Source of the DNA: Marsupella aquatica
Lineage: Eukaryota; Plantae; Marchantiophyta
Direction: 5' to 3'
Length of the DNA: 64,000 nt
Assembly: GCA_973895155.1 (NCBI GenBank)
Contig: OZ316892.1
Location: 17,660,357 to 17,724,356, forward strand
Within the stretch, counting starts at the first letter, position 1; the number at the start of each line of letters is the position of its first letter. A program made the position numbers and the translations under genes. Shown here in pieces: positions 8,790 to 53,584 of the stretch. The notes beneath the pieces are model-generated. The model was not told the DNA's origin and ran no database searches. It saw only the letters and a program-made list of their open reading frames with translations.

Positions 8790-9480
8790 GTATTATAACC
8801 TTGTTTTTAAGTTACAACTTGTCAAACAATACTCAAACCCTTGAATATATGTGTACCAACTGATTTAACTTATGACCTTATTGATTTTGAAGTTACAATT
8901 TATGGGATCAAACATCATAAAGACCCTTATAGATGTGTGTACCAAAATGCCTTGACTTATAACCTTCCTAGATAACCTAATTTTGATTTTGAAATTACAA
9001 CTAGGGTCAACCAATACACTAACCCTTGTAGATGTGTGTACCATAATGTCTTAACTTGTAGTTACCTTATATTGATTTTATAAGTTACAACTGGGGTCAA
9101 AGAGTACACCGACCCTTGCAGATGTGTGTACCAAAATGTCTTAACTTGTAACTTTATATTGATTTTGAAGTTACAAATGGGATCAAACAATACACTGGTC
9201 AACCCTTGCGGATGTGTGTATCAGAATGCCTTAACTTGTAACCTTATATTGATTTTATAAGTTATAATTGGGGTCAAATAGTACACCGACCCTTGCAGAT
9301 GTGTGTACCAGGATGCCTTAACTTGTAACTTTATATTGATTTTGAAGTTACAACTGGGGTCAAACAATACACCGACCCTTGTGAATGTGTACCAGAATGC
9401 CTTAACTTGTAACCTTATATTGATTTTGAAGTTACAATTAGGGTCAAACATTACACCGACCTCTGTATATGTGTGTACTA
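8790..9480. repeat. Minisatellite, 84-90-bp unit, about 8 copies, two hairpins per unit
   Basis: Unit acttgtaactttatattgattttgaagttacaactggggtcaaacaatacaccgacccttgcagatgtgtgtaccagaatgcctta; starts at 9234, 9321, 9405 etc. Confidence 0.95.
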
Positions 9481-9707
9481 TAGTTTATTGCATTAACTTG
9501 AATAATATGATATGGACCTTATAATTATAGTACCTGATTGATAATAAACTTAAGTGAATAATTTTAGGTACAAAGAGCTAACTTCTCCATTTTTGGAATC
9601 CAACAATGGGCAAATTTCACTTTCTTAATCTATAATACCCTAAGATAACCATAACAATATGAAACAAGATTACAAAAGACTCATTTACCTACCAAGAGCA
9701 TTGCTTT

Positions 9708-12694: not shown

Positions 12695-13400
12695 TAGTAT
12701 AGAATATTAAGGACTTGCCCAACTGCCCAGACAGTGAACAGAATCAACGTTTCTTTTAGTGGCGATAATTCGTAAACTATCTGATACTGTAAAATATTAA
12801 GGACTCGCCCAACTGCACAGACAGTGAACAGAATCAACGTTTCTTTTAGTGGCGATAATTCGTAAACTATCTGATACTGTAAAATATTAAGGACTCGCCC
12901 AACTGCCCCAGCAATGAGCACATTAGCAGGATCAGCGTTTTTCCCGTGGCCACCAATAGTCATATTACGAAACCATCATTAATATTTTACGATAAAAAAT
13001 GAAGCGCAGATAGATTTGCCCAACTGCCCAGTGACTATAGCAGTGAGCAGAATCAGACTTTTTATGAGGCCGACAATTCGTCAAACTCCGAAACTAACTG
13101 TAACAATAGAATAGTAAGGAGTTGCCCAACTGCCAATTGCCAAGGAGTGAGAGCATAATCAGCGTTATTTTTAGTGGCGTCAAACTTTGAAACCAACTTT
13201 AAGTACAGAATATTAGTGACTTGCCTAACTGCCCAATTGCCCAAGAACTGAGCAGAATAGCGATTTTAAGTGACTCTCAAACCATCTTTTACTGTAGAAT
13301 ATTGAGCCCAAATGGACTTGCCCAACCGCCCCTTGACCAAGCCGTGAGCAGAATCAGCAATTGTTTGTAGCGGCGACAATTAGTCAGATACTGAAACCAT
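12695..13400. repeat. About 90-110-bp degenerate tandem array, about 7 copies
   Basis: aatattaaggactcgcccaactgccca...gagcagaatca core repeated; the first two units are nearly identical. Confidence 0.9.
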
Positions 13401-13793
13401 GTTTTAGTATTATTCACAAAATTGAGCAAAATTATTGAGTTAGTACTCTCTAAATGACTCTGATTACAATATTGCCCAGTTGCAAAATCGCTGGACAACC
13501 ATAAATCACTCAATTGGAAATGCACGGGTAAGATTAATCTATGATGGCAGCTTACTAACTATAGGAATTTTTTGGTTTAACTTAGTACGGTTGCTAAGTT
13601 TTGGGGAGAACTTGGTAAAAAGCAGAATATGAAAAGTGTTCGCCACAATTTGCTCACCTTTTTTTCTTGATTTGTCAGTTTCACAGATATCCAACACCCC
13701 AGTAGACAAAAATCATCTGCTTATCCTTAAAGCGTTGGGAGAGCTAACGATGATATATCTTCACTTTCACACAAAGTGAAATCAGCCTCACTA

Positions 13794-13984
13794 CAAGAAA
13801 AGACTTAACGTGACCCCTCTGGTATCTCCTGTGTACTTGACCAGACCCTTGTGAGTAAGATGCCATCAAGACCTGGGCAAGATGACAGTCACAGGTCCTG
13901 TTAAGTCTTCTCTTGATTTCACTAGCATCTTGTTAGACTGTTAAGTCCAAGAAATGCCATAGGGGTCCTATTAAGTCTTTTTTG
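13794..13984. mobile_element. MITE family A, copy 1
   Basis: Homologous to the 18696 and 47430 copies; more diverged. Confidence 0.8.
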
Positions 13985-18100: not shown

Positions 18101-18695
18101 TATTTGTGCTCTGGAGATAGATGAAGTTATCATTAAACTTCAATAGAGCAGGCGAACGTACCCACATGAGGGTAATAAAGTGTTTGGTAGATTTTCCGAA
18201 TGATGAGCATTACGAATTTATCGTTCGAGTAAGTTGCATCAGTACTACAGCATTATATTATATTAAATGCATCATTTGGGTAAGACTAATTAATTTCAAA
18301 TTCAAAGCTTTCATTACATGTCTCATCTTTGTTTTTATGGTTTTTCGTGTGCCCCTTGGTCATGAAACCAAATATTTTGAGCTCTTTCATTTTGGAATTA
18401 TTTGTTTGATCGACCCCCAAAATGAAACTTGTTATTTGATTCACCCCCGAGATCTATCAATTGTCTACATCTGAGATTGAAAGGTCCATCAACGATCCAC
18501 ATTGGGGAAAAATATTGAGGGGGTTGATAAAGCAAAAATTTTCCATAAGCAGGTCTACTAAGCATATCTCTCTTCATTTTGGGCCTATGGTCTTGTCTTG
18601 CTACTTGTTGGGTCCCCTCAGTGATTCTGTGTTGCCTGTTCTCTTGCCGTTCCATGTTCCCTTTTATTTTCAAGACATTTTACTCACACTTACGA

Positions 18696-18879
18696 CAAGA
18701 AAAGACTTAATAAGACCCCTCTGGCATCTCCTGTACTTAACCAGACCCTTGTGAGTAAGATGCCATGAAGACCTGCCGGCAAGATGGGCAGTCACAAGGG
18801 TCTTGTTAAGTCTTCATGGCATCTTGCTGGACTGTTAAGTCCAACAGATGCCAGAGGGGTCCTGTTAAGTCTATTCTTG
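18696..18879. mobile_element. MITE family A, copy 2
   Basis: Same TIR and internal sequence (gtgagtaagatgccat...) as the 47430 copy; TSD not evident. Confidence 0.85.
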
Positions 18880-21800
18880 TATTTCTGACTATCTTACAAT
18901 GTGCGCATCCTCACAAGTGGAGTGGTGGGTTACTCAACAATCTTCAATGAGGCAAGAGTAATCCCGAGTTCAATTAAGATAAGAAAGCCTTTGATGCACA
19001 AGCTTATCCACATTATTATCCACAAGTCCTTAAAGCCAGTTCCATAATACATATTTGAGTTTTAGAAACCTTAAAATTGATTCACTTATCAGTTAAATGG
19101 AAATGAGGAATGTCATAGGTGATTTCTTGCAACTTTGAGTCAAACTATCTAGAGAGTTTGGAAGTGTTGTAGCTGTAAACATGCAGCCTCTCTAACCGAG
19201 CCTCCTTTGTCATTGTAGACTAGTTCTGAGCAGTGGATCCTAGCTCATGATTGTACTTGGTCAATAAACCAAGGCCAAATTTTAGAAAAGGAAGTTCAAA
19301 CTTTTAATGGGCTGTTTTTGTTACAATGAAACTGTTGCAAGCCTTTCAAGCAACTTTGGTGGAATACAAATGTTTACAGCCCAATATGTAGTGAAGTTTC
19401 ATGACTTATTTAGGTCTGGAGACACTTCTGCCAATCTTGTCTTGTCTTTGATTGATCAGATGAGAATTTGACATGTTTGATTATGTTTTGGTGCCTTTTT
19501 TCAAAATGAGAGGAAATTTGTTTGTAATGTTCAAAATTTGAAAATTTACTCTAATTTATAATGTCCAAAATTTCGCGAATTTACAAATTTTCTCTCCTGC
19601 TTAAATTTCTCCGATTACAAATTTCTCCGAGGAGAGTTCCCGAGGAGAAGGTAGTTTCAGAGTAGTCCTATAATAATGAAATATTACAAGATACCGTCTA
19701 CATGAATACTTGGTGCGGTCGAGACTAGACAAACCGTATTAAAACCGGAGTTATGGGTACGGTCCGCCTCAACTGTCATCGGGCGCCCACTATTTTCCCA
19801 CCCGGAGGACCCAAAGACAGCGGAGACCCAGGTAAGATACTAATGATGGCACGAAGCCCACAGAGCCTGGGCTTTGACCGAAGTGCGGTTACGGTAGGGC
19901 AGGTGTTTTACGGGGGACTGGACCGGAACGTACCGGTACTGCCTCCAGGTCAGTCGTTCCAGTTTGGGATTGACAGGTCCCTTTCTTTAAACTCTTTTTC
20001 CTATATTGGGTATGCATGCGTCACCGTGGTGTGACCGTAATCATCACTGCAGACCCTCCCACTTATATCCTTGTCAGACGCTTCCTATTCGCGCGGGATG
20101 TGCTCCAGCTCGACAGCCCGGTGTGATTAAAGCTGGAAATTATTTGCGGACCTTTCTGACAGGTTCAGGTGCAACCGTGGACTGATCATCATATCCATGA
20201 CGGGTAAGTTGAAGACCTGTTCCAAATCTTTCTCACGAATGGTTCGCTGCAGAAAAGCAGCGGGAGTGTTTTTTATATTTACCCGCGCCTGGGCCCTGCG
20301 CAACGGATTCTTGCCGCGGGAAATAAAAGTTTCTGGGCACGGAACAGAATCTTATTTCTCGCCTAATGCACTAATGATTTTTTCTCATGGTCTTTGTCCA
20401 TGGGTAGTCTTTAAGGTTTTCCCTTTTTTGGAGCGTGAGGTATGTCAGCTTTTTCGAAGGAGGAGCTAAAAATACTTTCTTTTGTAGTATTTTGTAACCA
20501 TTGGATTTCTCTACATTTGAAGATTGTCATTAGATTCTGGCTAGTTGGGTCTGTCATTGTGTGTATCGGAAACAGAAAGAAAAATTAGCCAGTTTTCACC
20601 AAAAGCCGGTGACAGTTTTTGTAGAGGTAGAATCTAGCTTATTTTTGAGTCTGGAAAAACGGTGCTCTGGGCAGCATACTCTAGCTGCAGGCGATTTTAA
20701 AAACTTCTGACGGGGAAGAATCCTTCTTGTTGTGGGTGTGTTTTTCCTTTCCATTCCATGCCCGTGGTGACTAAACGTTTCTGAATGGCATGAGAAAGAC
20801 CCTTGTTTCGTTTCTAAAGGGGTACTATTGTTTTCTCGTTCCCTTGCCCCCGGGCTCCGGGCACAGTAGTTTGTCTTTTATCTCCTCTGAGCACAGGATT
20901 GTGCCCCGCGGGCAACCAAAGTTTCTGAGGGCATGGAACAGAGTCTTGTTTATCGCCTACAGGGAATCCTGATATTATGACAGTACTGAGCGAACTCGTA
21001 GCTACGACTCCGTTCAGGTTGTTGCAGATCTCACACGTTACAGACTGTGTTTGACGGTTACGATCAAATTTCGGTGCAAAGATTCCTTTTCCAAACATGC
21101 TCAACTGACCGACTGTCAGCATGGGAGGGGGTGATGTAAGAAGATTCCAAGATAAATCAGCCCGCATATTTAGCATGCCAATGGTTGTCTTAAGACCTGC
21201 CAGGTAACGTTACCTGACCGTAGTTCCTCCTTCTGGGTCCCAATAAGTGAGTGTCCCTATTCGGCGAGATACTGTTGTCCGTTGGGGCTGGTACAGTTCA
21301 ACGCTGCACAGTCAATGGTGTGATCCACTGCATTCATATCCTCATTGAGAAAGATTCCCTCAAATGTGACTTATTAATTGTGGGGCATGTATGGTAAATC
21401 TCAGTCACTGTACAAATAACTAACCGTAGCACCCGTACCTAGTATCTACAGTGCCATACGATCCTGTTAGTGAGAATCAGGATAACCAAGGGTGGCATTA
21501 CAAGAACTCCGTGGTAGCAGTTTTTTTTCCTTTATGTGTGAAATGTAATCCTAATCATTCAAATGTATAGGATAATGACTATGGGCATAGAGTTATTAGT
21601 CTCTAATCCTATGATTAGAAAGTGAAGAAAAAATTATCTGTGAGCAATCTAAACACAGAGTTCAGTCTAAACCCAAACTTGACTTTCTGGGCGTGAGATT
21701 ATGGTTGTAGGAGAGGCCTCTACAAATCATGACAGATAGGTTACTTTGGTTCTGTCCCAAATTTCCTTGAAAGGTTCTGCACCAAATTCACATGCCAACA

Positions 21801-27800: not shown

Positions 27801-30572
27801 AACTGCCCTTCAAAAGCTACGGGTTACCCGTAGTTACCATTAAAAGAATATTTTTCCTGAAATTGTGGAGTAAACTGGCATGCTAGAGGAGAAGAGTGAT
27901 GAAATGTGGAACAAAGGGGGAGGTCTTGGACACTTCCCCTTATATAGGGCAAGTTGTGGTTGTTGGAAGGAAAAACTTTGCTCTGGAAAACCTTGTGGAA
28001 ACAAAAAGGATGCCAAGGAATGAATATGTAAAATGTCTCCAGGTCAATGGGGTATGCATGGTTCACAAGACCATCATTTTTTCAGCAAATGTTGCATTGT
28101 GTGAAACTGAAGGTGCTACGAACATGAATTAGTCACTTGAGTAAAGACAGTGATAGGTCTTGGCTTCAACTATTGTGGTTGACTATTCTCTTTCTGTGGG
28201 GTTTCACAGATTTCCCTTATAATAAATAAATTCTGATTGCTAGATTTTGATAGTAGATTTTGGCTGATGTGGTTAGTGACTAGAGGTAACTGGCTAACTG
28301 GTCAATTTTACGCAGGATGGCCTTCCAATGAAGTGCAATTTGGAAAACTTTGACTAGGTGTGAAACTGGCTCATCACAAACTGGTCCTTTCTCTCAGGAA
28401 TCATTTAGACCTTTTTAGTGAACTGGAATGGTAACTAGTAATTATTAAGTGGATGTATATTCTCCTAAATCTTACCTCCTCCAGTACTTGCATATGATAT
28501 GGACAAGAAAACAACCTTTTTTTTTGGTAGGCTTTCTTCCCGCAGGAATGCTGATTTAAGTATCATTCCTTGCTCTTGTAGTGATGAGGCTTGGTGGTGC
28601 TTGAGATGTGAGAGTTCTTCACATGAAGATATTATGCACTGTCAATGGCTTATGTCCAGAGCCACAAGAAATTTGGCGATGGGTGGGGATGGTGATGCAG
28701 TTTTTGATGTTGTCTCATTTGGCTACTTTCTAATTGGAAGCGGTTCACGCCATTTTGGGTGCGCCTTGTCACGTATTGTAGTATATTATACTATCTAGGT
28801 TTGTACATTTTGTATGTGTGCTATATGAGCCAATAGGGTTCAGTTTGGGTTTGTGTGGAGAGTAGTTCTCCAATTGTGAGGCATCGAAAGGTTATCTTTT
28901 GATCATGAGCCTTGGAGAGGGGAGCTTGAGTTGTGGCTATGGTGGGTGAGAGCTCCTTCTATGTAACATCAGTTCCTTGAGTGCAAGGTGCACTGGGCTT
29001 GACATACGTGTGTGATTGGATCGGGCGGGATTGATCGTTTGTTGTTGGCGTCAATCGCTGTTTGATTTCATGAAAGATTATTGTGGGTTTTGGACATGGG
29101 TGGACATGGTTTCACTTGTAGCCCATTCTCTTATTAATGTTTGTTTGTGCTTATGTTTGTCACGCCGAGGGAGAGTGCCTCTTATGCAAATCGGCATGTC
29201 CCTTGCATGCCCGCTAGGTATGTAGTTAGGGCTAGTGTACTACTTGAGTTAGCGACATGTTCTTGTAGCAAGCCTGCCTGGGCCGTTCTTGAAGCAAATG
29301 CGCTTGTTAGTGTGATGCCTGGACTTGGCTTACTTAGGGCATGTCTTTCTTTGTCGTGTTATGTGTATAGTTAAGTGTATACACATAACCCTCCCGTTGG
29401 GGCCCAGGTTTCTTTTCTTTCTCGGCCGCAACCTACTTCGCGACCTGCTGCAGCCAATAATTGCTGCATTGACTGCCGACTATTGTTGCTGGCTCCTGCT
29501 GCCACTGTCAACTGCCACGACCCATCCACCACTTTTGGCATTTTTTGGTGCTTATTTGGCGGTTAGTTGGGCCATTTTTTGGTGTTTGCCGGCCATCGTG
29601 CGACTACTTCCCGGCAGCCTCGGCCACCCCGCAACTACCTCCCAAGTGCATAGGGCCGCACACCCATTTCTCCCCTCGCAACGCCCCTTTCTTCTTTTTC
29701 TTTTTTGCCACCCTTGCCAGTAATTAAAGCAACCACGGGAGGGAAAGTGACTCCCTTCCTTTTTGCCCTGCCACAAGCAAGCGAGAGGGGATGGAGGGCA
29801 CGAGGCCCTATGGAGAATTAAAGCAAGGAGGAGAGGGAGCCAAGGCGGGAGCGCAAGGAGGGGGTGCAAAGCCCTATGCAGGGCTCATGCCATTAAGAGG
29901 GGCCCCCTGCATCCGCCCATTTCTTTCCCTTCGCCGAGTGTCCAAAGTGTATACACTTAATTCGGGCCCTTTTCTTTTTGTTTTTGGCTGTTCTCCCTCA
30001 TACACCGCGCGCGGGATGACAGCATACGGCACCAGGGCCGGCCAATCCTTCTGTTTTTGGGTCCACATAGGGGTCCGAGGTATACACTTTAGGGGGCCCA
30101 TTTTCCTCATATTCCTTTGCTGTTGCCAACGTCAGGTCATCTGCATATGGCTGCGGGTCCGGTGTATATACACCGGATGGTCAATTTGGCATATACATAG
30201 GCAAACGCGAAGGGGGCTAAATTTGCGCTTTTAAGGGTCATTTTCTCTGACAGGTTTTCTATGTGTTTACATATTTTGTACATTTGGCACCCCGGGTGAG
30301 CATGTAGCATGTTAGCAGAGGAGCCGAGTCGTAGCATCTCATCGCCACCAACACCCCGGTACCACTTACGGAGTGATCCACGGCCGTTGGTGCCAATTTC
30401 ATTGGAGTCCTGACAATTTTGATGACGTCAACAGACAGCAGCAGCACCCACACCATGCCATCCTTCTACTACATTTGGCGGTTGCTTCACCACTACCCCA
30501 AAGCCTACTATTGCTTCTTTGCCCTTTACCCCTTTTGCATTAGTGGTTGTTCCTGCTTCACCGACATACAAC

Positions 30573-31976
30573 ATGGATGTCAGCCACTCATTTGGCCGCA
30601 TTGAGCGCTTCAGCGGGCGGCCAGGCACTTTGCGTGAGTTCAAATCCACTCTCTACACTGTCGTTTACGAATTGGAGTTGAAGTACGACAACAATTTCAC
30701 ATATGCTTTTGCATTTAAGCAGCTAGCCAGGTATGTGCACCATGAGGCTTTGGATGTGTATGAGCAGCACTCGCAATGGATGCTTGCTGTCACACAATTG
30801 CCTAACCCTACCTATGCTAGTGCAATTGCGGCTGCCTCACAATTGGCATTACAGAATGCCATTGCAGCCCATGTTGTTGCTCCTGCCACTTCCCCTCCTA
30901 CTCCAATTCCTACCACTGCACCAATTACTCTCACTGTCTTGGCATAGGCTACATCGGGCATTTCTTCCACCATTAATTCCCCTGCCTTTGTTGATCCAGT
31001 GGGTGAGTTTTTCAAGGTTCTTGAATCATTTGGAATTCCCAATCAAGAGTGCTGACAAAATCATGCAGTTGGCCACCTTTGTAAAACACGCGATAAAACA
31101 TTAAAGATGATGTAGTGTCGGCTTCTCAAGCTGAAGGAGGACACCCAGAGCATCACTGACCTGGAGGCTGCTCATCACTATCTTAGTGCATTGGAGGGCA
31201 CACCAGCTCTCTATTCGCAAGTGTTGCAGCAAGTATTCTCAGAGTTTGGAGACAGCTACACATTGCTCAATGTCTATGACACTGTTGAGAAACTTGAGTT
31301 GGCCCATGCACATTATGAGGCCAGTATTGTGTGTCCACCGCAATCCAGGTACCAGGCTACTGCCCCTACACTAGCCACTTCTTCCCGTGTGCCACTATAG
31401 GGTTCCATGCCCAAGCCAGCACATGCTGCTTTCATGCTGCCATCTTGCAACTATTGTGGTAACCCTAATCACAAGGCTAATGAATGTAATATTGTTGTTG
31501 AGGACTTGTCTTGTGATTTTTGCGGGAAAGTGGGCCACTTGGTGGCAGTTTGTTTTGCCAAATTCCCAGAGAGGAAGCAGCTACGACAGCAAGCCACTCA
31601 TCCTGCTCTTGCTTCCACTCCCCCACCAGCTAGGAGGGCTCCTACTGCATCAGTTGCTCCTCCTTCCAATGGCAAAGCACCCGGTGCCAACAGACCGCCC
31701 AAACAGCAACAAAAATAACCAGCTCAAAAGGAGGCTCACAACGCACAGGCAACTCAACTACAGTCTTTGACTCATGAAGTTGAATCCTTATGTGCCCAAC
31801 TTGCCAACATCAAAGGAAAGTCACCTGCCTCTGCTGGTCCTTCTCAACTTGCTGGTCACGTGCAACCCATCTCTAGTTCAGGCACCACTGACAGTTCAAC
31901 ACCTCTACCTCGCTCTTTCTATGGCTTGCCCTTTGATGCTTATATGGGTGAGTGTGTGTTGTCCTCTGCTACATAG
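30573..31976 (+). pseudogene. gag: gag-like region with two CCHC zinc knuckles
   Basis: Starts MDVSHSFGRIERFSGRPG; CNYCGNPNHKANEC and CDFCGKVGHLVAVC (CX2CX4HX4C) in ORF 31407-31718; several stops and frameshifts. Confidence 0.8.
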
Positions 31977-32599
31977 CCTGGCCTTACAACAAAATTTTCA
32001 AATTCATTTTGCCCATCCTATTTTGCTTACCAGTAGGCCAGTGCTGCCTCCCATACTACTCTCACATGCCGCATTGTACATACTAATGGTCTTGCTGCCG
32101 GTCCTATGACTAGAGCCAGGGAAGCTCGGGTTGTCATGCCCCAATCTTTTCAGCCACTCACACTTGCTGAAGAGCGCACCTTATTGGCGAGGGGGGAGGG
32201 AGCTGCAACTACATCCATTCCATCACCAAGTGCTGCTGACATTTCACAGCCAGGATGTTGTTTCTCTTGAGTTGCTTGAGCATTTCACCTCTGATATGGC
32301 ACAACAGATTCTTGCAACTCCACTTTTTAGTTGCCATAATTTACAACTGGATGCCAGAGCTGTAATCAGAGCGCTAGAGGGCTCATTGCATTCTTCATCA
32401 GCCCCTATGACACCGGTTTTAGAGGTCCAATCTCATGTACATACTAGACCTTTTTCTTCTCCATTACATGCTTCCACTGGTTTGGTTGTCCCAGTACCGA
32501 TTGCTGCTGATTGTGTGACTAGAGCTACACTTGATTCTGGTCATGCTGCTCCATCTTTCCTAGCTATGTTGTTGAGTGGGAAGACCATGGACACTAACT

Positions 32600-33155
32600 T
32601 CCTTCACAAGGTACCACATCATTTGCCAAAAGTTGTGCCTAGCGATAGGACTTCAGTTTCCACCACCATTGCCATTGTTGACAACAGGAATTCAGCGGTC
32701 AAGTTGGAGGGTCACACTTCTCAGGTGGTCATGCTAGATACAGGCGCTCAACCAGTGATCTTGGGCATTCAGTTTGCCAAGAAGTGAGACTCATGACTGA
32801 TAATTTATAGCAATCTAAATGGCACATTCGGACTGCTAGTGGCACTATAAAGGATGTGCTGGGTGAGAGTTCTACTTTCCTCGCTCTCACTTGTAATGGA
32901 GGTACAGATTAGGAACTTCATTTCTCAGTTAGATGCTTGGTTACAAATGCCACTACGTATGATGTGCTCATTGGCCAGGAGGCTTTGTTCCCACCAGGTT
33001 TCACCATTGACAATTGGCATGAGCATGCATACTATAGAGTTGATTGGCCGTATACTGATGGCTTGCACTTGGGCTACATTCCCCTTGATCTACATGGTGC
33101 CCATACTCCCATGGCTCACCATTGTGTGTTGAAAGAAATGCACACAACTACCTAG
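32600..33155 (+). pseudogene. Retroviral-type aspartic protease
   Basis: VMLDTGAQPVILG active site at about 32730 and downstream YDVLIGQE flap/psi-like motif (ORF 32937-33155). Confidence 0.8.
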
Positions 33156-33392
33156 GTCAACCATCCATTGTAGGATTGGATTGAGGAGGATGACAATGAG
33201 GTGGCTATTGCACATATAGGCTTAGCATTTTCCAGCAATGTGGATCATCAACCAGAGGTGGTACAACGGCTCCAGGCAGCCCATGGACCTTTGATGGCTG
33301 CATTGCACACGTTTGACGACCTTGGGCAGCACAATGGACAGCCAATAGCCCCAATCTTGAACGCACCAGTTACATGGACTCCTCATCCGGAT

Positions 33393-34200
33393 GGCCTTAC
33401 TTTGCTTGAGCTTTTTGGTGGCAGTTCTACAGGTCTGCATTTTCTTTCTTCCCTCCAGATATCCAACTTGTCTAGCACTGGCACTTCACCCTTCTTGGCT
33501 CCCTTGATTTGATCATAGCTGGTTGGGAATGCCAAGGCTTTTCAGTTGCTGGTCACGGTGTTGGATTGCATGATTCTCATTCTGGCCTTTTCACAACATT
33601 GGTTCAGGTTCTCACCTGGGCTCAATCCCTTTATCCCGTTGTTGGTTATATCATTGAGAATACTCCTGCCATCTCAGTTTGACCAATGTCCACAGGTCAA
33701 AGAGGATTTCAGTGTGGTCCAACACTACTTGGGACCACCCCTTCTCATTGATGCAGTGCACTGTGGTTCTTATGCGCATCGTCTTCATAACTTTTGGACT
33801 AACCTTGCACCACCTTCCTTGTTGGAGTTAGCTCTTCACCACACATCGAGGGACACTAACCTCACAGTGGACCAGATTTTGGATCCTGACAGATCTTGCC
33901 AACCAGTTACACAGCAAGAGCCAGCACCTTGGTATCCACCCAATACCATTGGACAGCCCCGTGCTGCATGGCCTACATTTGTGTCCTTTCCAGGTGCACA
34001 TATATGCTTTTTAGGGTGATGGTCCTGGCCTGGTTTATCAACATTCTACCGGTACATGGAATGAACCTAGTCTTGAGGAGAGAGAACGGGCTACAGGCTT
34101 CCAGCCTGGTACTACAGGCCACACCAAAATCACCAGGCTGGCCAGGAATGCTTTACTTGGCAGGGTAATGGATCTTAATGCTCTCACTTGGCTTCTGGTC
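33393..34200 (+). pseudogene. C5 cytosine DNA methyltransferase domain inside pol
   Basis: Motifs in order: I LLELFGGSSTGL (about 33402-33437); III PDI (33455); IV DLIIAGWECQGFS (33506-33544) then GLHDSHSGLF; VI YIIENT (33647-33664); VIII DAVHCGSYAHRLHNFWTNL (about 33750-33806); IX EERERATGFQPGTT (34075-34116); X RNALLGRVMD (34144-34173). Three frameshifts, one stop, motif II apparently deleted. Confidence 0.9.
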
Positions 34201-34549
34201 ACTTGCATCCTTTTTCAGATGTACATTCATCCAGCATCAAGAGTTCTAGCCCTACCACTCTATGGTGCTGCTACATGGCATCCAGACCAGGTACACTTAC
34301 CTCTATTCAACACTCACCGCTTCAGTCCAAGTGTTGGGGGGAGGAGTGGGGGGAGGAGGTCCCTTGTAATGTGGCTGACATTATTTTTGAGTTTCATGGT
34401 GTGGATCAGACCAGATCAACAGATACAACAGGCCTTGGAGAGGCCTCATCACCTTATCAACAGCATTCTAGTAGCTTGGACAGTGAAGAGGCTAGCACTT
34501 TGGGTTCTTCAAGCACGAGTTCATCAGGTCCGATTCCTAGTGTTGCCAA

Positions 34550-35530
34550 CTACACATTCATCATGGGCAACCACCTGAGTAAAAGACACAAGGACCAGCT
34601 GCTGAATTTTCTCCTCAAGCATGAGAACGTGTTTGCTTTCTCTATGAAGGACTTGGGTAAGTGCAAGACTATGCAGTTCTCCATTGAGTTGGTTGATGAA
34701 ACACCTATCTTCAGGCGGAGACACCGTTTGAGTAAGCATGAGTGGTAGCTTGTGGATGAGAGGTGCCAAGAGCTCTATGAAGCTGGTCTTATTTAGCCAT
34801 ATACATCAGATTTTGCAGCAGCTACAGTGATGCCAGCAAAGAAGGATTCCAGTGGATTGTGGACAAAGAAGCGCATGTGTGGGGATTACAGGCCACTGAA
34901 CCTGGTCACACCCTAGGATAGGTATCCCATGCCACGGCCAAAGGAGCTATTTGACAACATTGGAGACTCAAACATCTTCACTCTTGTGGATCTAAGGCAA
35001 GGCTTTAACCAAATTTTGCTGCTTGCAAAGGACCGCAAGAAAACAACTTTCCATGGTAGTAACCAACTATGGGAGTGGTTGGTGATGTCATTTGGCTTGA
35101 AGAATGCGCCCATATTCTTTCAAAGAGTCATGGACCAGGTTCTTCAAGGTGCTGAGTTTCTAAAATGCTACATTGATGATGTGTTGGTCCACAGCAAAGG
35201 ATTTGACCAGCATCTACTTGACCTTGAGGAGCTATTCATGAGGCTTAAGAAGGTGAACCTAAAGATACACCCCAAGAAGTGTGAGTTTGGTGTCAGATCA
35301 ATAGTATATCTTGGGCATCGCATTCTTCCAAATGGAACCATGGCTCACTGGGCCAAGGTGGTATCCATCTTGGAAATGCCCACTCCTACTGATGTTCACA
35401 CTCTTAAGAGCTTTATTGGGTTGTGCAATTACTACCGGATCTATATCAAAGATTTCAATACCAAATGTTGCACACCCATTGTACTCTTTGTTGAAAAAGA
35501 ATGTGACTTGGACATGGAGTACAGATGCTG
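34550..35530 (+). pseudogene. Reverse transcriptase, Ty3/gypsy type
   Basis: RMCGDYRPLN, DLRQGFNQI, MSFGLKNAP, YIDDVLVHS, KCEFG, YLGH, SFIGLCNYYR motifs. Confidence 0.97.
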
Positions 35531-35555
35531 AGGCAACATTTGCCACTTTGAAGGA

Positions 35556-35975
35556 TTGGAGAAGCTCTCAGAATATCTGGTGCTGAGAAGACCTAATTTC
35601 AACAAGGTCTTTGTGCTACACACAGATTGGAGTGCCCTTGGGATTGGTGCCATTTTGGGCCAGCATGATGAGGAAGGTAAAGAGTACGTCATTGCCATAG
35701 ATGCATCCAGGAGCAACAATCAGGTAGAGAGTCATTATTCTTCTTATGAGGGTGAATGCCTTGCTGTTGTGTGGGCTGTCATACATTACAAGCCCTACCT
35801 CTATGGGACCAGGTTTACTCTCTACACAGACCAACAGCCCTTGAAGTGGTTGATGACTAACGACAAGCTTACTGGCAAGCTTGCTTGTTGGGCGCTCATA
35901 CTCCAAGAGTATATGACTTTGTGGTAATTCATAGGCCTGGTGTGACACATCAAAATGCTGACACTATGTCCCGCA
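35556..35975 (+). pseudogene. RNase H
   Basis: LHTDWSALGIGAILGQ, SYEGECLAVVWAV, LYTDQQPL, NADTMSR. Confidence 0.95.
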
Positions 35976-36138
35976 GCCCTTTGATTACCTCTGATGATTC
36001 CTCAGATGCACGGTAGGATTTTGACCAGGGTTCCATCCTGCCTACATTGCATGCATCTACCTATCTTGCTTTGCTACCATGCTACGTTGTTGACCAACCT
36101 ATGGTGGACATATGAGAGGATAATTCAACACTCTGAGA

Positions 36139-37296
36139 TTGCTACAGCATGGGGAATACCCCACACATGTCACTACAGCCCAGAGAGACCGAATTCAACA
36201 AAGGTCCAAGCATTACTTGTGGAAGGGAGATCATCTCATATGTTGCTTGCTAGACAGGGAAGTGGTGGTTCCACCCATTCATGAGAGGGTTGGCCTTATC
36301 CGTAAGGTACATTCTGAGCTTGGTTTTTTTGGCGTTAAGAGGACTTACAACCTCTTGGTTCCCCATAATCATTGGAGAGGCATGCATGGCCAGGTTCGGG
36401 ATATTATTGCCCGGTGTGAACAGTGTGATAGGGTGAGGACTTCTTTCACATGTCGGCAACCCACACTTCATCCACTCCCTATGTAGGGCATGTTTGATTG
36501 TTGTTCATGTGATTTGGCTGGAGAATTATCCCTCACATCTCTGGGTAATCTCTACATCATGATCGTGATAGAGCATTTCTCCAAGTGGATAGAACTTGTG
36601 GCATTACTAGATAAGACCTCCCGCAACACCAACCAGACATTCCTTCAACAAGTTCTCAGTCGCTTTGGAGCTTGTGCAGAATGTCTCACCGACCAGGGAT
36701 CAGAGTTCAGAGGAGAGTTCTAGGAGCTGCTTGATCAGGCCCTCATTGATCAGGCCCTCATTGATCATCGCCGGACATCACGAGATCACCCACAAGCAGA
36801 TGGCTTGGCAAAGCGCATGGTTCAGACATGCAAGAAGGGTCTCTGCAAGATTTGCCTCACCAAAAACAAGGAGGATTGGGACCTAGCCTTACTCTACATT
36901 ACCATGGGGTATAGGATGTCTAGACATGCATCACTGTCTAACTTTTCTCCCTACTTCTTGTTGTTTGGTCGTCATCCAGTTCCACCTTTTGCTATTGCTG
37001 CTCACATGCTTCAGGTGGTGGACTTGGATTCAGCCATGACTTGGTCTGATGTGATCTTTGAGAGAGTTGCTCTATTCACGAGGGTTATGCCCATGGCCAT
37101 GGAGAATTTGGCCATTGCACAACATAGGGACACACTGCATTATGCCCACACACGAGGGGGCACTTTTCAGCCCAAGGTCAGGAAGTTTGAAGTGGGAGAT
37201 TTTGTGTACTTGCAGCGACAAGCTAACGACACCTGGACACCTCTACCAGCCGTACTATTCTCAGGGTTAAGGCTATTTGACCGTCTGGAGTGCTAG
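36139..37296 (+). pseudogene. DDE integrase with zinc-binding N-terminus
   Basis: HSELGFFG...CEQC; DLAG; TDQGSEF; ADGLAKR (catalytic E to K); SPYFLLFGR; FEVGDFVYL. Contains a 15-bp in-frame duplication (tgatcaggccctcat) at about 36732-36765. Confidence 0.95.
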
Positions 37297-37417
37297 AGTT
37301 ACAAGGGGCAGATGGGTGCACAATTGCTGACAATGCCAAGAATTGCACCCCTTGTCATCTGCCTAACCTGGATCCCACCATTGTCACTTCTACTTGGATC
37401 CCACCTGTGGATTACCC

Positions 37418-37560
37418 GTGCAAAGTGTGTTTGCGAATTGATGATGCTGACCAGATGCTGCTGTGTGACAATTGCAATGGAGGGTACCATCTTTTCTGCC
37501 TTCGGCCTGAACTTACCCAGGTGCTAGAAGAGAACTTTATGGTTTTGCCCTTCCTGTGCT
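37418..37560 (+). pseudogene. PHD finger (C4HC3) C-terminal to integrase
   Basis: CKVCLRIDDADQMLLCDNCNGGYHLFCLRPEL, then WFCPSC after a frameshift at about 37540. Confidence 0.92.
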
Positions 37561-38644
37561 CAACGTGCTACCTGACTTTTCTTCAGCCCTCCTTTTTGGC
37601 TGTGGTCTGGGGGGAGATACAGAGGTTTACACCTCCACTACGTACATACCACCTCTTTTTCTTTTTCTTAGCACTTGTAAATGTGATGAGACTTTTTCTA
37701 TGCATGTTGATTGCTAGTGGGTTGCACATGTGCATTGCCGGTGCTTTGTATATTTTCGATACACTATGGCTACGATACTATGTGTCATGACATGTTTGGA
37801 TGTGTGTGACATGCGATGAATGTTATGTAACAATGTGTATGCACATGACAACCTCTGTCAATTTGATGAGGGGTGTTTTGATTAAGCTTTGGCATTTGGT
37901 TTGGGGTATCACTAATTGGTAGCTTTGGAAAGCCCGCTGTTCCTTGGAAAAGAAGGATGTGCGGTGATAGGAATTCAGATTTGAATTTGGAGAGATCTCT
38001 GATGATGTATCAAGATTGCTTGGATACAACGCTGGCACGCTTGAGGAAGGGTGGCCTTCAACAAAATTTGGTGGGTAGGATGCGCCAAGATTTGGCAGAG
38101 AGGTTGCTTTATATTGCTTGGATGATGGTCTGTTGATTGTGAACTTGTGGTTGTTTGATCCGGCTTGAAGTGAATCTTGTTGGTGTGGGTATTTGCTTTA
38201 TGCGTAGGTTTAGTTCTGCAGATGAATCCTTTTGGTGGGATTTTTGCAGAGGTTCAGTCAATCAGATCTCCATTTTTTTTTCTTTAATTTGGGATCCCTC
38301 GCTGCGCTTTGGACTCAGTCAGCCCTCACTTCTGCAGTGGTTGTTTTTCGCTTTTGTTGTGGGTGATGAAATGGTTGCTTTCCACTCATTTTTTAATTCT
38401 TGGCCTTGTCCACTTGACCAAATGGGTTTGGTCTTCGTGTGGAGGTTGGCTTGTGACCATTTTTTGGGTCTGGCCGCATCACTCCCTGATTTATTGGGTT
38501 CTCCTTTTTGATTAAGTAATTAAAGTGCTCCCTTCAAGACAAAAAAGAAGAGAAAACAACTGTTGCATATACTGCCACTAAAGATATGAGTAATTATGAT
38601 ACTACCATGATGATTTTATAACATTAATAACCAGAGACAGACAA

Positions 38645-38711
38645 GGGTTTCCTATGGGTACGGTTATACTGTATCTTACTGCTCTAGGATAACCGTACCC
38701 ATAGGAAACCC
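38645..38711. other. Perfect 23-bp stem, 21-nt loop hairpin
   Basis: gggtttcctatgggtacggttat (38645-38667) / ataaccgtacccataggaaaccc (38689-38711). Confidence 0.95.
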
Positions 38712-45195: not shown

Positions 45196-47043
45196 ATTCA
45201 CGGAGGCGAGTCCCTGCATTGTCATTCAATGCACCTCAATTCTCCCCCATAGTCCACGGGAATACTCTCTCCATTTTTGTGTCTCACTTCAGTTTCAGGC
45301 CAGCCCCATTTTTGGGTCCCCCTTCAGTTTTGAGGAGGGCACAGATTTTTGATTGAGGAGTTCTAATGTTTGATGGTTTTAACTTATTCACAAATAATGT
45401 AAAACTATAATATCAATTTTAAAAATATCAATATATTTTTAAAGATAAAATATTAAATAATTATAAAATATTAAATGGTAATGAGCATGGAGAATTGATG
45501 CACAGAAGTAGTGTGTGACCTAGTGGTATTGGAGGTCAATTGAGACTAAGACGTGGCGTGTTCAAGGCACACGATGGGCAACTTTTCTTTTCTTTGATTG
45601 AGGGCATGGAAAGGAATGAACGTTGGAGGGGGCGGGGGTGTCTAATTGTATTTGAAAATGGAAATGGTAAATGAGATATACGTGGGGGGTTCAAGTAATT
45701 TGGAGATAGCAAAAATAACAAAGGAAACACCCATGAGAGCCAGGGAGATAAATTAACCTCTTTTGTTAATTTCCTATACCTGCCCATTGTTGTGAGGTGC
45801 CAATCATGTTCCTGGTGGGTAGTTGCTTTCAGTTTTAGGAAGAATCCAACAAAAGAGGTTAGCACAAGAAGCCAACATAAGAGGTTAGAAGTCAAAAGGC
45901 AAACAATACTAGAGGTGGTGTTGACAGGAGAAGAAAAGCCTTGTGCAACAAGCTGAGAAACCAGTAAGACAAAAGAAAGCCCCTATGAAAAAGGCACAAA
46001 AACCAACCCAGCAGAAGTCCCCTATGAAGCAAGTCCAAAAGTGTGTGGTAGAGAAGACAACAGGGCCGGGAGTGGTAAGTGTGCTCCAATTGACAGGTTT
46101 TGAAAGTTTGCAAGGAATTGGTGCAAGCATGGGTCTTAATTCTTTGAGTGTCTTGACAAATGTGTCAAGCACAGCACCTTTGGTACACTTGTTTTCCAGG
46201 GTAGCCAACTTAGACTATTTCCAACCTTGTATATAGAACCTGTAGATATGTGATTGAGTGATTAATTGTAGGGTGGTAGACTGCCATTGGCTTCTAGGTT
46301 TTCTATTGATTTGAAAACAAATTTCATGAATAAAGTTTTACTTCTTATACAATAAGATGTGTGCTTACCATAAATGGTTTAGGAGATAAATGGTTTTTTA
46401 TGTGATCATGTCTCCTCAACTTTTCTGTTGCTGCTATATGGTGCATCCTTGGTTCATATCCCCAAGTCCAATTTTTTTGGACATTATTTTAATTTTATGC
46501 CTGGCTCTGATGGGTGTCTCCTTTGTTATTTTTTCTATCTCCAAATTACTTGAACCCCTCATATATATCTCATTTGCCATTTCCATTTTCAAATACAATT
46601 AGACACCCCCGCCCCCTCTAACGTTCATTCCTTTCCATGCCCTCAATCAAAGGAAAGAAAAGTTGCCTGTCATGTGCCTTGAACACGCCACCTCGTAGTC
46701 TCAACTGAGCTCCAATACCACTAGGTCAGACACTACTTCTATGCGTCAATTCTCCATGCTCATTACCATTAAATGTTTTTAAATTATTTTATATTTTATC
46801 TTAAAAAATATATTGATATTTTTAAAATTGATATTATAATTTTATGTCATTTTTGAATAAGTTAAAAATGTCAAGCATTAGAAGTCCTCAAAAATCTGTG
46901 CCCTCCTCAAAACTGAAGGGGGACCCAAAAATGGGGCTGGCCTGAAACTGCAGTGAGACACAAAAATGGAGAGAGTATTCCGGTGGGCTCTGGGGAGAAT
47001 CGAGGTGCATTGAATGACAATGCAGGGAATCGTCTCCCTGAAT
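45196..47043. mobile_element. Non-autonomous long-TIR (foldback/Mutator-like) DNA element
   Basis: About 560-bp inverted repeats (45196 to about 45755; about 46490 to 47043); candidate 8-bp TSD tcggttac (45188-45195) / tcggttat (47044-47051). Confidence 0.9.
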
Positions 47044-47429
47044 TCGGTTATACAGCGGGCAGCAGGGGCGTATGCACGGGCTAATCATTGCTAAGTAACA
47101 TTGATTAGCCTCGATATTGCTTTTTGTCCTTAATTAGCTAAAGGCTCCTTGTCTTGTTGCTGTCAACGCTTTGTGTACTTCCTGGCTTTTGATACATTTG
47201 CCGGGAAGTTTTCACGGAAAAGATTTCCCTGTTTCCCAGCGAGCCTCACATGCACCAGCATTGGACTCACCTTTTGCTAACCAGGTTCCCTCTTGGTTAG
47301 AGCACTCCCACTAGAGCACACCAAAGAGCCCTGTCATGGGGGACATTTAGTGACCCCCTTAGTGACCCGAGAGTGTGCCTGGGTATCTACGCGTACCCCA
47401 CCCTTCCAACCTTTCACACTCACCAGAAA

Positions 47430-47616
47430 CAATAAAAGACTTAACAGGACCCCTCTGGCATCTCCTGGACTTAACCAGACCCACCCTTATGAGTAAGATG
47501 CCATCAAGACCTGGGCAAGATGGCCAGTCACAGGGGTCCTTCTAAGTCTTCATAGCATCTTGTTGGACTGTTAAGTCCAGGAGATGCCAAAAGGGGTCGT
47601 GTTAAGTCTTTTCTTG
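47430..47616. mobile_element. MITE family A, copy 3
   Basis: About 45-bp TIR CAA(G/T)AAAAGACTTAACAGGACCCCTCTGGCATCTCCTGGACTTAAC; perfect 9-bp TSD caccagaaa (47421-47429, 47617-47625). Confidence 0.9.
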
Positions 47617-50600: not shown

Positions 50601-52381
50601 CCTTCACAAAATTGAAGCATCATTCCCACAAGTGATAATTTGAGGCTCATGTTTGAAATACTCAGTGCTTTCTTCACAAAAACTGAAATGTCCAATGAAA
50701 GTCAGTTTATAACATTTGATCATTTTTTTGCTCATTGGAAAATGACACAAATGTTTTAAAAGAATCAACTTTATGAGATAATAGACAGAACATCAAAGAA
50801 CATGCTAACAAAATTTGAAAATAAATAGATATCCAAATCAAAATAAAGGCAGAGTGTGCCAAGGACCTGCAGTTCACAATTGGTTGGGGTGCCTCTAAAA
50901 ATCAATTGAGGTCATAGCCTTAGTAACAGTGAACATCCTTCCAAAGTAAAAGTGTAAATTGATAGATGATATCCCTATGTAAAAGTGTAAATCGATAGAT
51001 GATTTTACTCTGTCCTTGGGACAAGTAAAACAAACCCCTCTGTCGGTCCTGCTCTGTCCATCCGGACTTAAATATTCACACATAGGGGCAAGAAAATCCG
51101 GGCATAATATTCACACATGGGGGCAAGAAAATAATAGACAGTCAGTATAGTGCCTTCAAAATCACCGAAATGAAAAGAAAAACAGCCACACCATTCCAAG
51201 CTGTACATCCTGCGTGACCATTCCCGATCCATCTCTGTCGTTCCAGTCCACGACGAAAGAGTTGGCCTCAGACGTGGCAGCCTCGCATTGGTGCCCCAGG
51301 ACCCATCATAGAAAGGAGACTTGGCCCAGAAGGCTCCAAAAGCAGTCCCGTCCTCGGGTCCGACTACTCATCGACCGACGCGTGAGAACTGGATACTATT
51401 CTGGTCTCGCAACCCCGGACCAGACCTCGATGCACTGCGACCGCGGAGCCGGTCCTCTAATGAGAACCGCGCACATGGCGTAGCGGAGCTGGACCGCCAA
51501 TGGAAGGCAACTTACTGGACTACAGTCGTAGTAGATGGGTCGGGGCTGTCACAATCGGATGATATTTCTTGCCATCGAGTGGGACGGAATAATAATGATG
51601 GATGCAACTCTTTCATGGAGGTCGCTTTTTTTCGCGTCCATCGCTCGCCTCCCCCCGCTCGCGCGCCCTGTCCCCCGCCACCCCCCTACGGCCCAGATCT
51701 TCGCCCAAATTAAAGCATGGCGGCACCCGATATAGCGCACCGCAACTTTTTGGCCGGTACCGACTTCCCGGACGGATCCAGCGTATACTGTCGCGTAGTG
51801 ACATCTCGGTTCGAGCAAGGAAGTACGCCGAATATTAGCTGCTTTTTATTCGAGGCAATAAATGCCAAAATTGTGTTCGTGATTTAGTCCCCTATCTTTT
51901 CAACAAGAGTTAACACTAACCAGGGATGAGAATTAGATATTCATAAAGTCGTATTGCTTTTGAAAAGCCCATGAGTTTACCTGGAAACACTGATATGTCA
52001 AGCTTGCCGCGACGCATCTCGACCATGGTCAAGAGGCCAAACACAGGGGGTTTGCATCAGCGTCGGGTTCTACCAGGCTGTGACTAGAAACGTCGGGGCT
52101 GAACTGTGTCTCCGATCGATACAAGGCTGGTGCGAGGCGGGGTGGGGGCAGGGTCCGTGGGAGGGGAAGCATCGATGCATGATTGGCTTCCTTGAGCTCC
52201 CTATGCTGCCGAATTCAGTTGCGCTACACAATCGATGGGCATGATCCGAGGCGAGCAAGACAACTACGAAGAGAGGAGATGAATTGATTCCGCTTCAGCA
52301 TCCTTTGGTCATAAGCATTCAGAAGCTAGGAAATTTTAGGGATTTGCACCGCTAACCAGTCAATCTTTAGACTGTGCAACT

Positions 52382-53584
52382 ATGGAGCCATTTCAAGTTC
52401 TCCCGCCGGAGGGATATGATAGCGATGATGATAGCAGCAGTGATGATGAAGAAGCAAATGCTTCAAGCATTGAGCAACTCATGGTACTTCTGGTACTGTC
52501 CATGTCTTCGTACGTATCTTCAAATGATGCATTGCTTTCAACCAATTGAACTGTCAAGAGAAAATCAAATTTCTGTCAATCCAGTTGTGGGAGTTCACGA
52601 TGTGTTGAGCAGATTGCAGGCAACTCCAGATCGGTTTAAGGACTTAACTAATTTTATGGTACATGAATTTGTAGAGCTCTGTGCAAAGGTATGTCCTGTC
52701 ATTGAGACCAATGCTAGATCAACTGAAACCAGAGCTATTGTTTCAGGTCGCCCTTGTAAGTTGACTCTCGAGCAGAGGCTGCTGAATTTCATCTTATATA
52801 TGAAGCACGACAATATTATTCACTTTGACTCTATGTTCTGGAATTGGGCTAGATCTGTTGTGTGTGATGATGCTATATTCGTAGCATCATGCTTGAATGA
52901 TGCTATTGCAAATGAAATTTGTTGGCCAACCCCAGAGGAAAGGAGACAGTTAGCTCAGCATCATCCACAATTGCTAGGATGTATTGGAATTGTTGATGGT
53001 ACCCTTTGCAGAATTCGTAGACCTTATGAGGATCAGTACCACAACAAGTGGTATCAAGGAAGGAAGAAGATGTACTGCATGAATAGTTTTGTAATTGTAG
53101 ATCACCATGGACTTTTCATTTTTTTGTCGATCCTGGCTATCCAGGCAGCTACCATGATGTGACAATTCTTAAGAATTCTTGGGTTGAAAGGACAATGAGG
53201 AACTTGTTTGCTAATTCTGAGAGGTATTTTGAATACATCCTTGGTGACCAGGGGTACACCAGCCTGGAAAGATACATCATGAGAGGTTTTTCAAAAACAG
53301 AGATTAATGCCATGCACTTGGACAACAATTGTGCTGTGAGGCAATTCAATAAGATGTTGTCTGGGTATCGAGTTCGTGTTGAATGGGGCATTGGTGGCCT
53401 GAAGATGAAGTGGAGACGTCTCCAGAAACGATTCGACCTAGTCAGGCCCAAGTTTGTGATTACCTTCCAAGCTGCTGCTTTGATGACTAATTTTCTCCAC
53501 CGACGACGACAAAATATGAGGGCAAGCATCGAAGGTCCACAGGAAAGGAGACCCGAGAGACGAGGTTGGGCAGGAGACCCATAG
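52382..53584 (+). pseudogene. PIF/Harbinger DDE transposase (about 2 frameshifts)
   Basis: GCIGIVDGTLCRIRRP, VDPGYPGSYHD (after T-run frameshift at about 53120), ILGDQGY, FNKMLSGYRVRVEWGIGGLKMKW; acidic N-terminus from ATG 52382. Confidence 0.93.

Follow-up and report, generated by a model that had tools for sequence, protein, structure and literature searches.

The Element and Its Coding Content

The window, by which we mean the whole 64,000-nucleotide stretch of the liverwort Marsupella aquatica analysed here (contig OZ316892.1, positions 17,660,357 to 17,724,356), contains a Gypsy-type element at positions 29158–37792 that has TG..CA ends, the tetranucleotide TGTT on both sides, and no terminal direct repeat. 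The left boundary reads TGTT|TGTCACG, with TGTT at 29154–29157 followed by TGTCACGCCG starting at 29158; the right boundary reads CATGACA|TGTT, with CATGACA ending at 37792 and TGTT at 37793–37796. These ends had been proposed in a preliminary description of the same DNA, and its coordinates are exact. No second copy of either terminal region lies in the 64 kb: the 5′ 1173 nt and the last 232 nt gave just short palindromic self-matches. The principal features are listed below; homologies refer to a sister family and to two loci, L081 and L082, of a distant family.

29154..29157, plus strand: left copy of the target-site duplication (TSD), TGTT; from sequence, family TSD length 4.
29158..29164, plus strand: left integration end TGTCACG and start of segment A, the putative 3′ half of the long terminal repeat (LTR) defined by reverse transcriptase (RT); same 7-mer in L081/L082, 6/7 in the sister family, TSD-plus-motif test.
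29158..30308, plus strand: segment A and 5′ untranslated region (UTR), with a TATA-like site near 29366; weak nucleotide homology to sister A.
29369..29962, plus strand: best local duplex, a possible self-primer and primer-binding site (PBS); its arms share a repeated palindrome.
30309..31800, plus strand: decayed gag-like region, approximate boundaries, zinc knuckle at about 31443–31487; PF00098, E = 6.6e-5, nucleotide homology to relatives from about 30546.
32701..33062, plus strand: aspartic protease remnant; tblastn to open reading frame (ORF) 1 of L081, E = 5e-16, weak Pfam protease matches in relatives.
33342..34218, plus strand: remnant of a Dnmt3-like C5 DNA methyltransferase, frameshifted; tblastn 40–47% to the L081 methyltransferase, E = 9e-46.
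34548..35912, plus strand: reverse transcriptase and RNase H, the aligned frame broken by 4 stops; PF00078, PF17917, PF17919, tblastn to L081.
36130..37233, plus strand: DDE integrase with H2C2 finger; PF17921, 86% to Calypogeia protein P0001.
37419..37568, plus strand: PHD finger; PF00628, E = 4.8e-10.
37609..37616, plus strand: polypurine tract (PPT); aligned with the G-tract of relatives.
37617..37792, plus strand: segment B, 176 bp, the putative 5′ half of the RT-defined LTR, ending CATGACA; length equals sister B in L017, tail rank 1 of 127,954.
37793..37796, plus strand: right copy of the TSD, TGTT; from sequence.

The domain order is gag, protease, Dnmt3-like methyltransferase, RT, RNase H, integrase, PHD, and the window copy is decayed. 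Pfam scans of this copy identify the zinc knuckle, RT, RNase H, integrase H2C2 and PHD domains, and tblastn with the intact relative L081 adds the protease and the C5 DNA methyltransferase, the last of which (33342–34218) the preliminary description had overlooked. The methyltransferase domain is recognised as PF00145 in L081 and L004, and its top matches in the Protein Data Bank (PDB) are DNMT3A, DNMT3B and DNMT3C. The protease–RT–RNase H–integrase order and the RT and integrase themselves are of Gypsy type; the top PDB match of relative P0007 is Ty3 Gag-Pol (E = 1e-94). No chromodomain was found in Pfam scans of the window copy and its relatives; a PHD finger is present. The integrase of the window copy is broken by stops and a short in-frame duplication, and its third catalytic residue is not glutamate. 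The element is a dead copy.

In intact L081 one stop, at 3489–3497, separates a gag–protease–methyltransferase ORF from an RT–RNase H–integrase–PHD ORF. The stop lies in a context resembling the UAG-CAR-YYA readthrough signal; this arrangement was not found in 33 other sequences checked.

The flanks of the element are both rich in G and T, as had been remarked earlier: G+T is 0.66 and 0.65 in the 500-nt flanks, and only 4 of 127 500-nt bins of the window reach 0.60. This skew fits a single sequence that has been interrupted. None of the 10 flank ORFs checked has a meaningful Pfam match.

Relatives of the Element

The ends were compared with those of relatives in other genomes: 80 sister-family loci from metagenomes and the two loci of the distant family. 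The sister loci are the best 80 of 459 matches and come from short-read assemblies. They are about 70% identical to the window element in coding DNA; the L081/L082 family shows 55% protein identity.

A search with the integrase retained 96 proteins among 317 candidates. Proteins of Calypogeia fissa lead the list (86% and 84%), and further matches come from Sphagnum, Marchantia, Klebsormidium and many metagenome proteins; those of K. nitens match at 45–59%. On an unrooted FastTree phylogeny confined to family homologues, the window element lies beside two Calypogeia proteins, in a clade with a Sphagnum protein and the sister family. The K. nitens proteins appear both among the matches and in this tree, and they are not tied to the published KnitGypsy-Dnmt3 element. 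Many of the database relatives are proteins of about 1030–1120 residues that span RT to PHD.

The integrase is of the DDE class. Intact L081 carries rve and H2C2 domains, and a Pfam scan of it gave no recombinase match. The spacing from the second aspartate to the glutamate position is 34 residues in all 67 pattern-matching proteins of 97 (63 with glutamate, 4 with lysine). The canonical spacing is 35.

Viral contigs yielded no relative in protein scans, and a scan of them for the junction pattern described below gave 7 loci, none with RT or integrase. The L081 and L082 contigs place a plant-type retrotransposon within a cyanobacterial genome assembly, probably through eukaryotic contamination; no further copy was found in the metagenome-assembled genome that contains them. 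L081 is assembled as a circle with a 127-nt overlap, which was rejected as a real circle and treated as a repeat collapse.

Two Forms with Shared Ends

The 3′ ends of the sister elements break sharply at CACGACA, about 176 bp past the PPT. The preliminary description had put the last purine tract of the window element about 175 bp inside its end; the measured distance, from the G-tract at 37609–37616, is 176 bp. After removal of 7 of the 80 loci without a 3′ call and of 11 that were redundant (same flank), 62 non-redundant 3′ ends remain. Thirty are short, A-internal-B, the form seen in the window, and 32 are long, A-internal-B-NN-A. In the long form, NN-TGTCA leads into a second A and then, where readable, into a second B, which is complete in 29 of the 32; the two B segments are direct repeats of about 176 bp lying about 290 bp apart. 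The fixed ends shared among copies are as the preliminary description anticipated. The two features it had named as pointing the other way, siblings with two ordinary LTRs and a 3′ breakpoint private to the window copy, were not seen: all relatives examined are A-internal-B or A-internal-B-A-B.

The B/A junction of the long form, GACA-NN-TGTCA, is a palindrome with a spacer of 2 nt in 37 of 37 long loci. The spacer letters in the 32 non-redundant copies are AC (12), GC (10), AT (6), GT (3) and AA (1), a spread that fits decay of a GC palindrome; the AC, AT, GT and AA spacers may be read as methyl-C decay products of GACAGCTGTC. L081 and L082 have the same junction with spacer GC, and L082 reads B-GC-A-B and then flank. 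A junction GACA-N(0–3)-TGTCA had been suggested for tandem copies or reads of extrachromosomal circular DNA. It exists, but inside the A-internal-B-NN-A-B structure: a PBS after the second A was found in 0 of 31 long copies, so that they are not tandem dimers. Within the 64-kb window neither a second copy of A nor a junction of this type above chance was found.

The window element shares these ends. When the last 24 nt of B in the sister family are used as a matrix, 37769–37792 comes first of 127,954 window positions, and a B profile matches 37594–37639, at the PPT and the start of B (E = 0.004). With the right end fixed, 29154 is the single window position at which a TSD is combined with the left-end motif (shuffle mean 0.06; at least one occurrence in 5 of 100 shuffles). 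The left end is the weaker of the two. It is backed by this test, by the identity of TGTCACG to the start of A in L081 and L082 (7/7, against 6/7 in the sister family), and by the register of the A profile (match E = 4.3), which would put the start no more than about 4 nt from 29158; it has no significant profile score. The two ends of the window element had been described as inverted copies at 6 of 7 positions. The inversion is present, but relatives end in CACGACA, so that the mismatch is partly C>T decay and the conserved core is GACA/TGTC.

Target-Site Duplications

Among 18 non-redundant copies with both ends, a TSD of exactly 4 bp is present in 10 and one with at most one mismatch in 14; L027, which has truncated ends and is still counted as short above, and L051, which is rearranged, were excluded from this test. 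Shuffled pairing of flanks gives a mean of 0.71 exact 4-bp matches and a maximum of 5, and exact duplications of 3, 5 or 6 bp occur in 0 of 18. Both forms are involved (long, 6 of 10; short, 4 of 8). The copy-specific 4-bp TSDs that the preliminary description looked for in other copies are therefore found. Its caution that the TGTT match in the window might be due to chance carries less weight now: a 4/4 match of the flanks has by itself a probability of about 0.004, to which the B-tail rank and the TSD-plus-motif test are added.

Putative Priming Sites and the Repeat Likely Made by Reverse Transcriptase

In the relatives the PPT adjoins B. Directly past the first A, no TGG-type tRNA site was found in the sister family. 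Instead, a tract of 12–16 nt right after A is complementary to a tract 30–35 nt downstream of the TATA sequence. Among the duplexes of each sister 5′ end, this primer/PBS-like pair ranks first in 14 of 17, and the arrangement recurs in L081, where the sequence is unrelated and 15 of 16 positions pair. Each of 40 block shuffles reached at most 12–13 pairs, and some decayed copies score no higher. Judged from sequence, the pair resembles the self-priming layout of Tf1, with the RNA start being predicted.

With the PPT adjoining B and the self-primer site adjoining A, the RT-defined LTR is likely B-GC-A, and the integration ends would thus lie in its middle. Repeats of one element are closer to each other than to those of other elements (A, 9 of 9; B, 20 of 22), and this homogenisation of both segments is consistent with an RT-made repeat of this kind. 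The A|B seam of the long form is ragged: of 31 seams, 15 are of the type with both AT, 8 are overlapped and 8 are of other kinds. Seam type is also unclustered on a low-resolution tree (14 changes, against 13.7 when shuffled). Such variation, scattered over the tree, is as expected for ends joined anew each time.

The seams of L015, L026, L039 and L062 show a recurrent duplication of about 20 nt of the A end, and L005 has a large deletion of A. In the 5′ UTR of the window element, at 29370–30180, there are four related GTATA(TA)CAC palindromes, most of them followed by GGGCCC, that were not seen in the sister family; the region is possibly a nested insertion.

A Model for Integration and Its Rivals

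We consider it probable that the window holds a dead short-form copy of a Gypsy-type family carrying a Dnmt3-like methyltransferase, whose inserted ends lie inside the repeat likely made by RT, at a GACA-GC-TGTC site that we infer to be cut by integrase. RNA starting in A would prime itself in the manner of Tf1 and be copied to (B-GC-A)-internal-(B-GC-A). Integrase would open the internal palindrome, leaving one extra base at each end, and the TG end of A and the CA end of B would be joined to the target with a 4-bp stagger. If the left junction were used once both LTRs are complete, the product would be A-internal-B-GC-A-B with a ragged A|B seam, the RT-made ends being joined together either before insertion, in a 2-LTR circle, or afterwards by repair. 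Cleavage of the single junction of a one-LTR circular intermediate, or of both junctions of a linear DNA, would yield A-internal-B, the form in the window. Lacking a 3′ repeat, this short form should not replicate and would be a dead end. A mirror form, A-B-A-internal-B, may be missing because the right junction becomes double-stranded last, a speculative suggestion.

Several observations weigh against this model. None of the 23 loci with a 5′ end has B upstream, nor do two additional stray 5′ ends, and the 18 both-end copies comprise 10 long and 0 mirror forms. Were the intermediate a symmetric 2-LTR circle, mirror and long forms should be equally frequent, so that an extra asymmetry must be assumed. 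Integrase cutting and any circular intermediate are themselves deduced from sequence. The proposal of the preliminary description, integration at an internal site that leaves an LTR split between the two ends, thus gains support from the termini, TSDs and junction of the relatives, with its circular intermediate still conjectural and the mirror form missing. In the window, the A-head matrix places the left end only 622nd, the best match of the A profile is non-significant (E = 4.3), and the best local duplex (29369–29386 with 29945–29962, 15 of 16 pairs) has the same palindrome in both arms. In four of the 18 copies (L004, L013, L054 and L078) no TSD can be recognised. Short and long forms show slight clustering on the tree (a count as low arose in 16 of 500 shuffles), and the fraction of short copies is 8 of 20 in the youngest third and 10–11 of 20 in the older thirds. 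The sister tree is star-like, with 9 of 61 branches starred, which leaves the seam and age tests with low power; the sampling of the sister loci also counts here.

The most serious competitor, possible though not favoured, retains the same mechanism for the family but supposes that the window copy inserted in the long form and later lost GC-A-B by recombination between its two B segments, an event like that producing a solo LTR, with ends and TSD kept. The proximity of the two B repeats favours such a deletion, as does the scatter of short copies among long ones on the tree (17 changes, against 21.6 when shuffled) and their slightly lower share in the youngest third. Terminal branch lengths, with medians of 0.091 for short and 0.093 for long copies, do not differ significantly (P = 0.52), however; in none of 11 redundant pairs did a locus switch between the long and the short form from one sample to the other; and solo A-B, the product of recombination between A segments, was not found in 436 kb of flank, a search of low power. 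The preliminary description had set aside both truncation and a solo-LTR outcome, and it is an event resembling the second of these that stays alive. Truncation of the 3′ LTR of an ordinary Gypsy copy, with TG..CA and TGTT arising by chance, is largely refuted and very improbable. The copy is old and decayed, with a left end only weakly homologous to its relatives, as truncation would allow, but the relatives share its 3′ breakpoint (rank 1), TSDs accompany their short forms, and none of those examined has two ordinary LTRs.

One-sided A-B-A-B layouts are normal among DIRS-type elements, and this counts for an alternative modelled on Ngaro and PAT, in which the RNA would extend past the second B, strand jumps would template the two B-A joints, and a DDE integrase instead of a tyrosine recombinase would insert a closed circle. 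The homogenised B segments fit such a scheme too, and the repeat layout equals the split repeats of DIRS-type elements (PMC5890265). We judge it unlikely: a PPT adjoining B and a self-primer site adjoining A mark ordinary LTR-type priming, and the B/A junction is invariant, in contrast to the A|B seam with its variable length. A cut-and-paste DNA transposon of the Ginger kind, carrying RT genes as passengers, would have TGT..ACA ends, 4-bp TSDs and a Gypsy-type integrase, and one Ginger family has a PHD finger (PMC2836005). This explanation was rejected, and we give it the least credence of all, as the expected 40–270-bp terminal inverted repeats (TIRs) were not found in the window, the family possesses a complete gag-pol together with a PPT and a primer site, and its repeats are homogenised within elements.

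A broader proposition, which we regard as evenly balanced, is that, in a Gypsy-derived clade found across streptophyte algae, mosses and liverworts, the ends used for integration have become independent of those made by RT. Integrase would then normally cleave a templated palindrome midway along the LTR, in the manner of IS3-type circle junctions, one-LTR intermediates, usually dead ends, would serve as insertion substrates and give about half of the insertions, the window copy among them, and the clade-wide D-x34-E spacing may accompany the change.

Relation to Known Systems

According to textbooks, linear cDNA is the only form in which LTR elements integrate, through the ends made by RT, and circles with one or two LTRs are for the most part by-products. 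The window element and its relatives resemble canonical Ty3/Gypsy elements in domain order, TG..CA termini and a TSD within the 4–6-bp range, but two direct LTRs with outer integration ends were found neither in the window nor in the relatives. If the proposed route is correct, the family would be a natural example of integration mainly by junction cleavage, and the question whether circles are integration precursors could be tested on a short oligonucleotide. In the circles of IS3 and IS911, a DDE enzyme acts on abutted CA-spacer-TG junctions that are made by joining true ends. The integrase of foamy virus cleaves the palindromic 2-LTR (LTR–LTR) junction (PMC1180852), and the present integrase is inferred to act on a comparable substrate; the junction of foamy virus comes from joined true ends, whereas here it would be templated and always present, midway along the RT-defined LTR.

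Sequence comparison points to the Calypogeia proteins as nearest to the window element and to a relationship with KnitGypsy-Dnmt3. That element, from Klebsormidium nitens (de Mendoza et al. 2018), was described in a figure legend as having Gypsy domains and repeats as in DIRS, in the order A-coding-B-A-B (PMC5890265). A Dnmt3-like methyltransferase in Pol and, in long-form relatives, the A-coding-B-A-B order are held in common; the window copy differs in being A-internal-B only, with the second A-B absent. The text and supplement of PMC5890265, in the portions available, mention neither a TSD nor a junction, and no priming site, short form or mechanism; only the alga is reported there. That legend is the sole place in print where we found an A-B-A-B layout for a Gypsy element, without a mechanism, and a 2026 preprint, as far as available, mentions streptophyte Gypsy-DNMT3 only in passing. 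No published account of a permuted or split LTR with integrase and TSD, and among the papers listed no description of the proposed mechanism, was found in a search whose coverage lay outside most subscription journals and Repbase Reports. What the window adds is the TSD-flanked short form, to which about half of the sister copies belong; the proposed route, if true, would also explain the odd layout of KnitGypsy-Dnmt3. Terminal repeats are missing from about half of the copies examined, and LTR-finding software would therefore likely miss or misdate this abundant bryophyte family.

DIRS-type elements use a tyrosine recombinase, and the window family differs from them in its DDE integrase, TG..CA ends and 4-bp TSDs; the likeness to Ngaro/PAT and TOC1 lies in the A-coding-B-A-B repeat order (PMC5890265). 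In self-priming of the Tf1 type, the 5′ end of the RNA is complementary to a site just past the 5′ repeat (PMC7175516), and self-priming has been predicted for plant Tcn1 elements, most of which carry a chromodomain (PMC6317226). The putative self-primer layout of the relatives, with its predicted RNA start, and their lack of a tRNA PBS are reminiscent of Tf1, sushi and Tcn1; those elements have two ordinary LTRs, and PHD, methyltransferase and permuted ends are found here. Gypsy-related integrases occur likewise in Ginger1/2, which have long TIRs and no RT (PMC2836005), and in Troyka, which has two LTRs, CG..CG ends and 3-bp TSDs and is known from animals only (PMC12440569). Identity with Troyka was rejected on the exact 3-bp count given above (0 of 18).

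Other Features of the Window

A hairpin with 26-bp arms, 96% complementary, lies at 38645–38711, 850 bp downstream of the element. At 52371–53584 the plus strand carries a remnant of a PIF/Harbinger-type transposase (PF13359, DDE_Tnp_4, in two frames). An inverted repeat pair of about 560 bp, 91% identical and about 730 bp apart, occupies 45196–45756 and 46489–47043 and may be a foldback or long-TIR element. Three copies of a self-complementary repeat of about 190 bp, resembling a miniature inverted-repeat transposable element, lie at 13787–13981, 18689–18880 and 47424–47616, and two tandem-repeat arrays with units of about 90 bp are located at 8804–9529 and 12617–13400.

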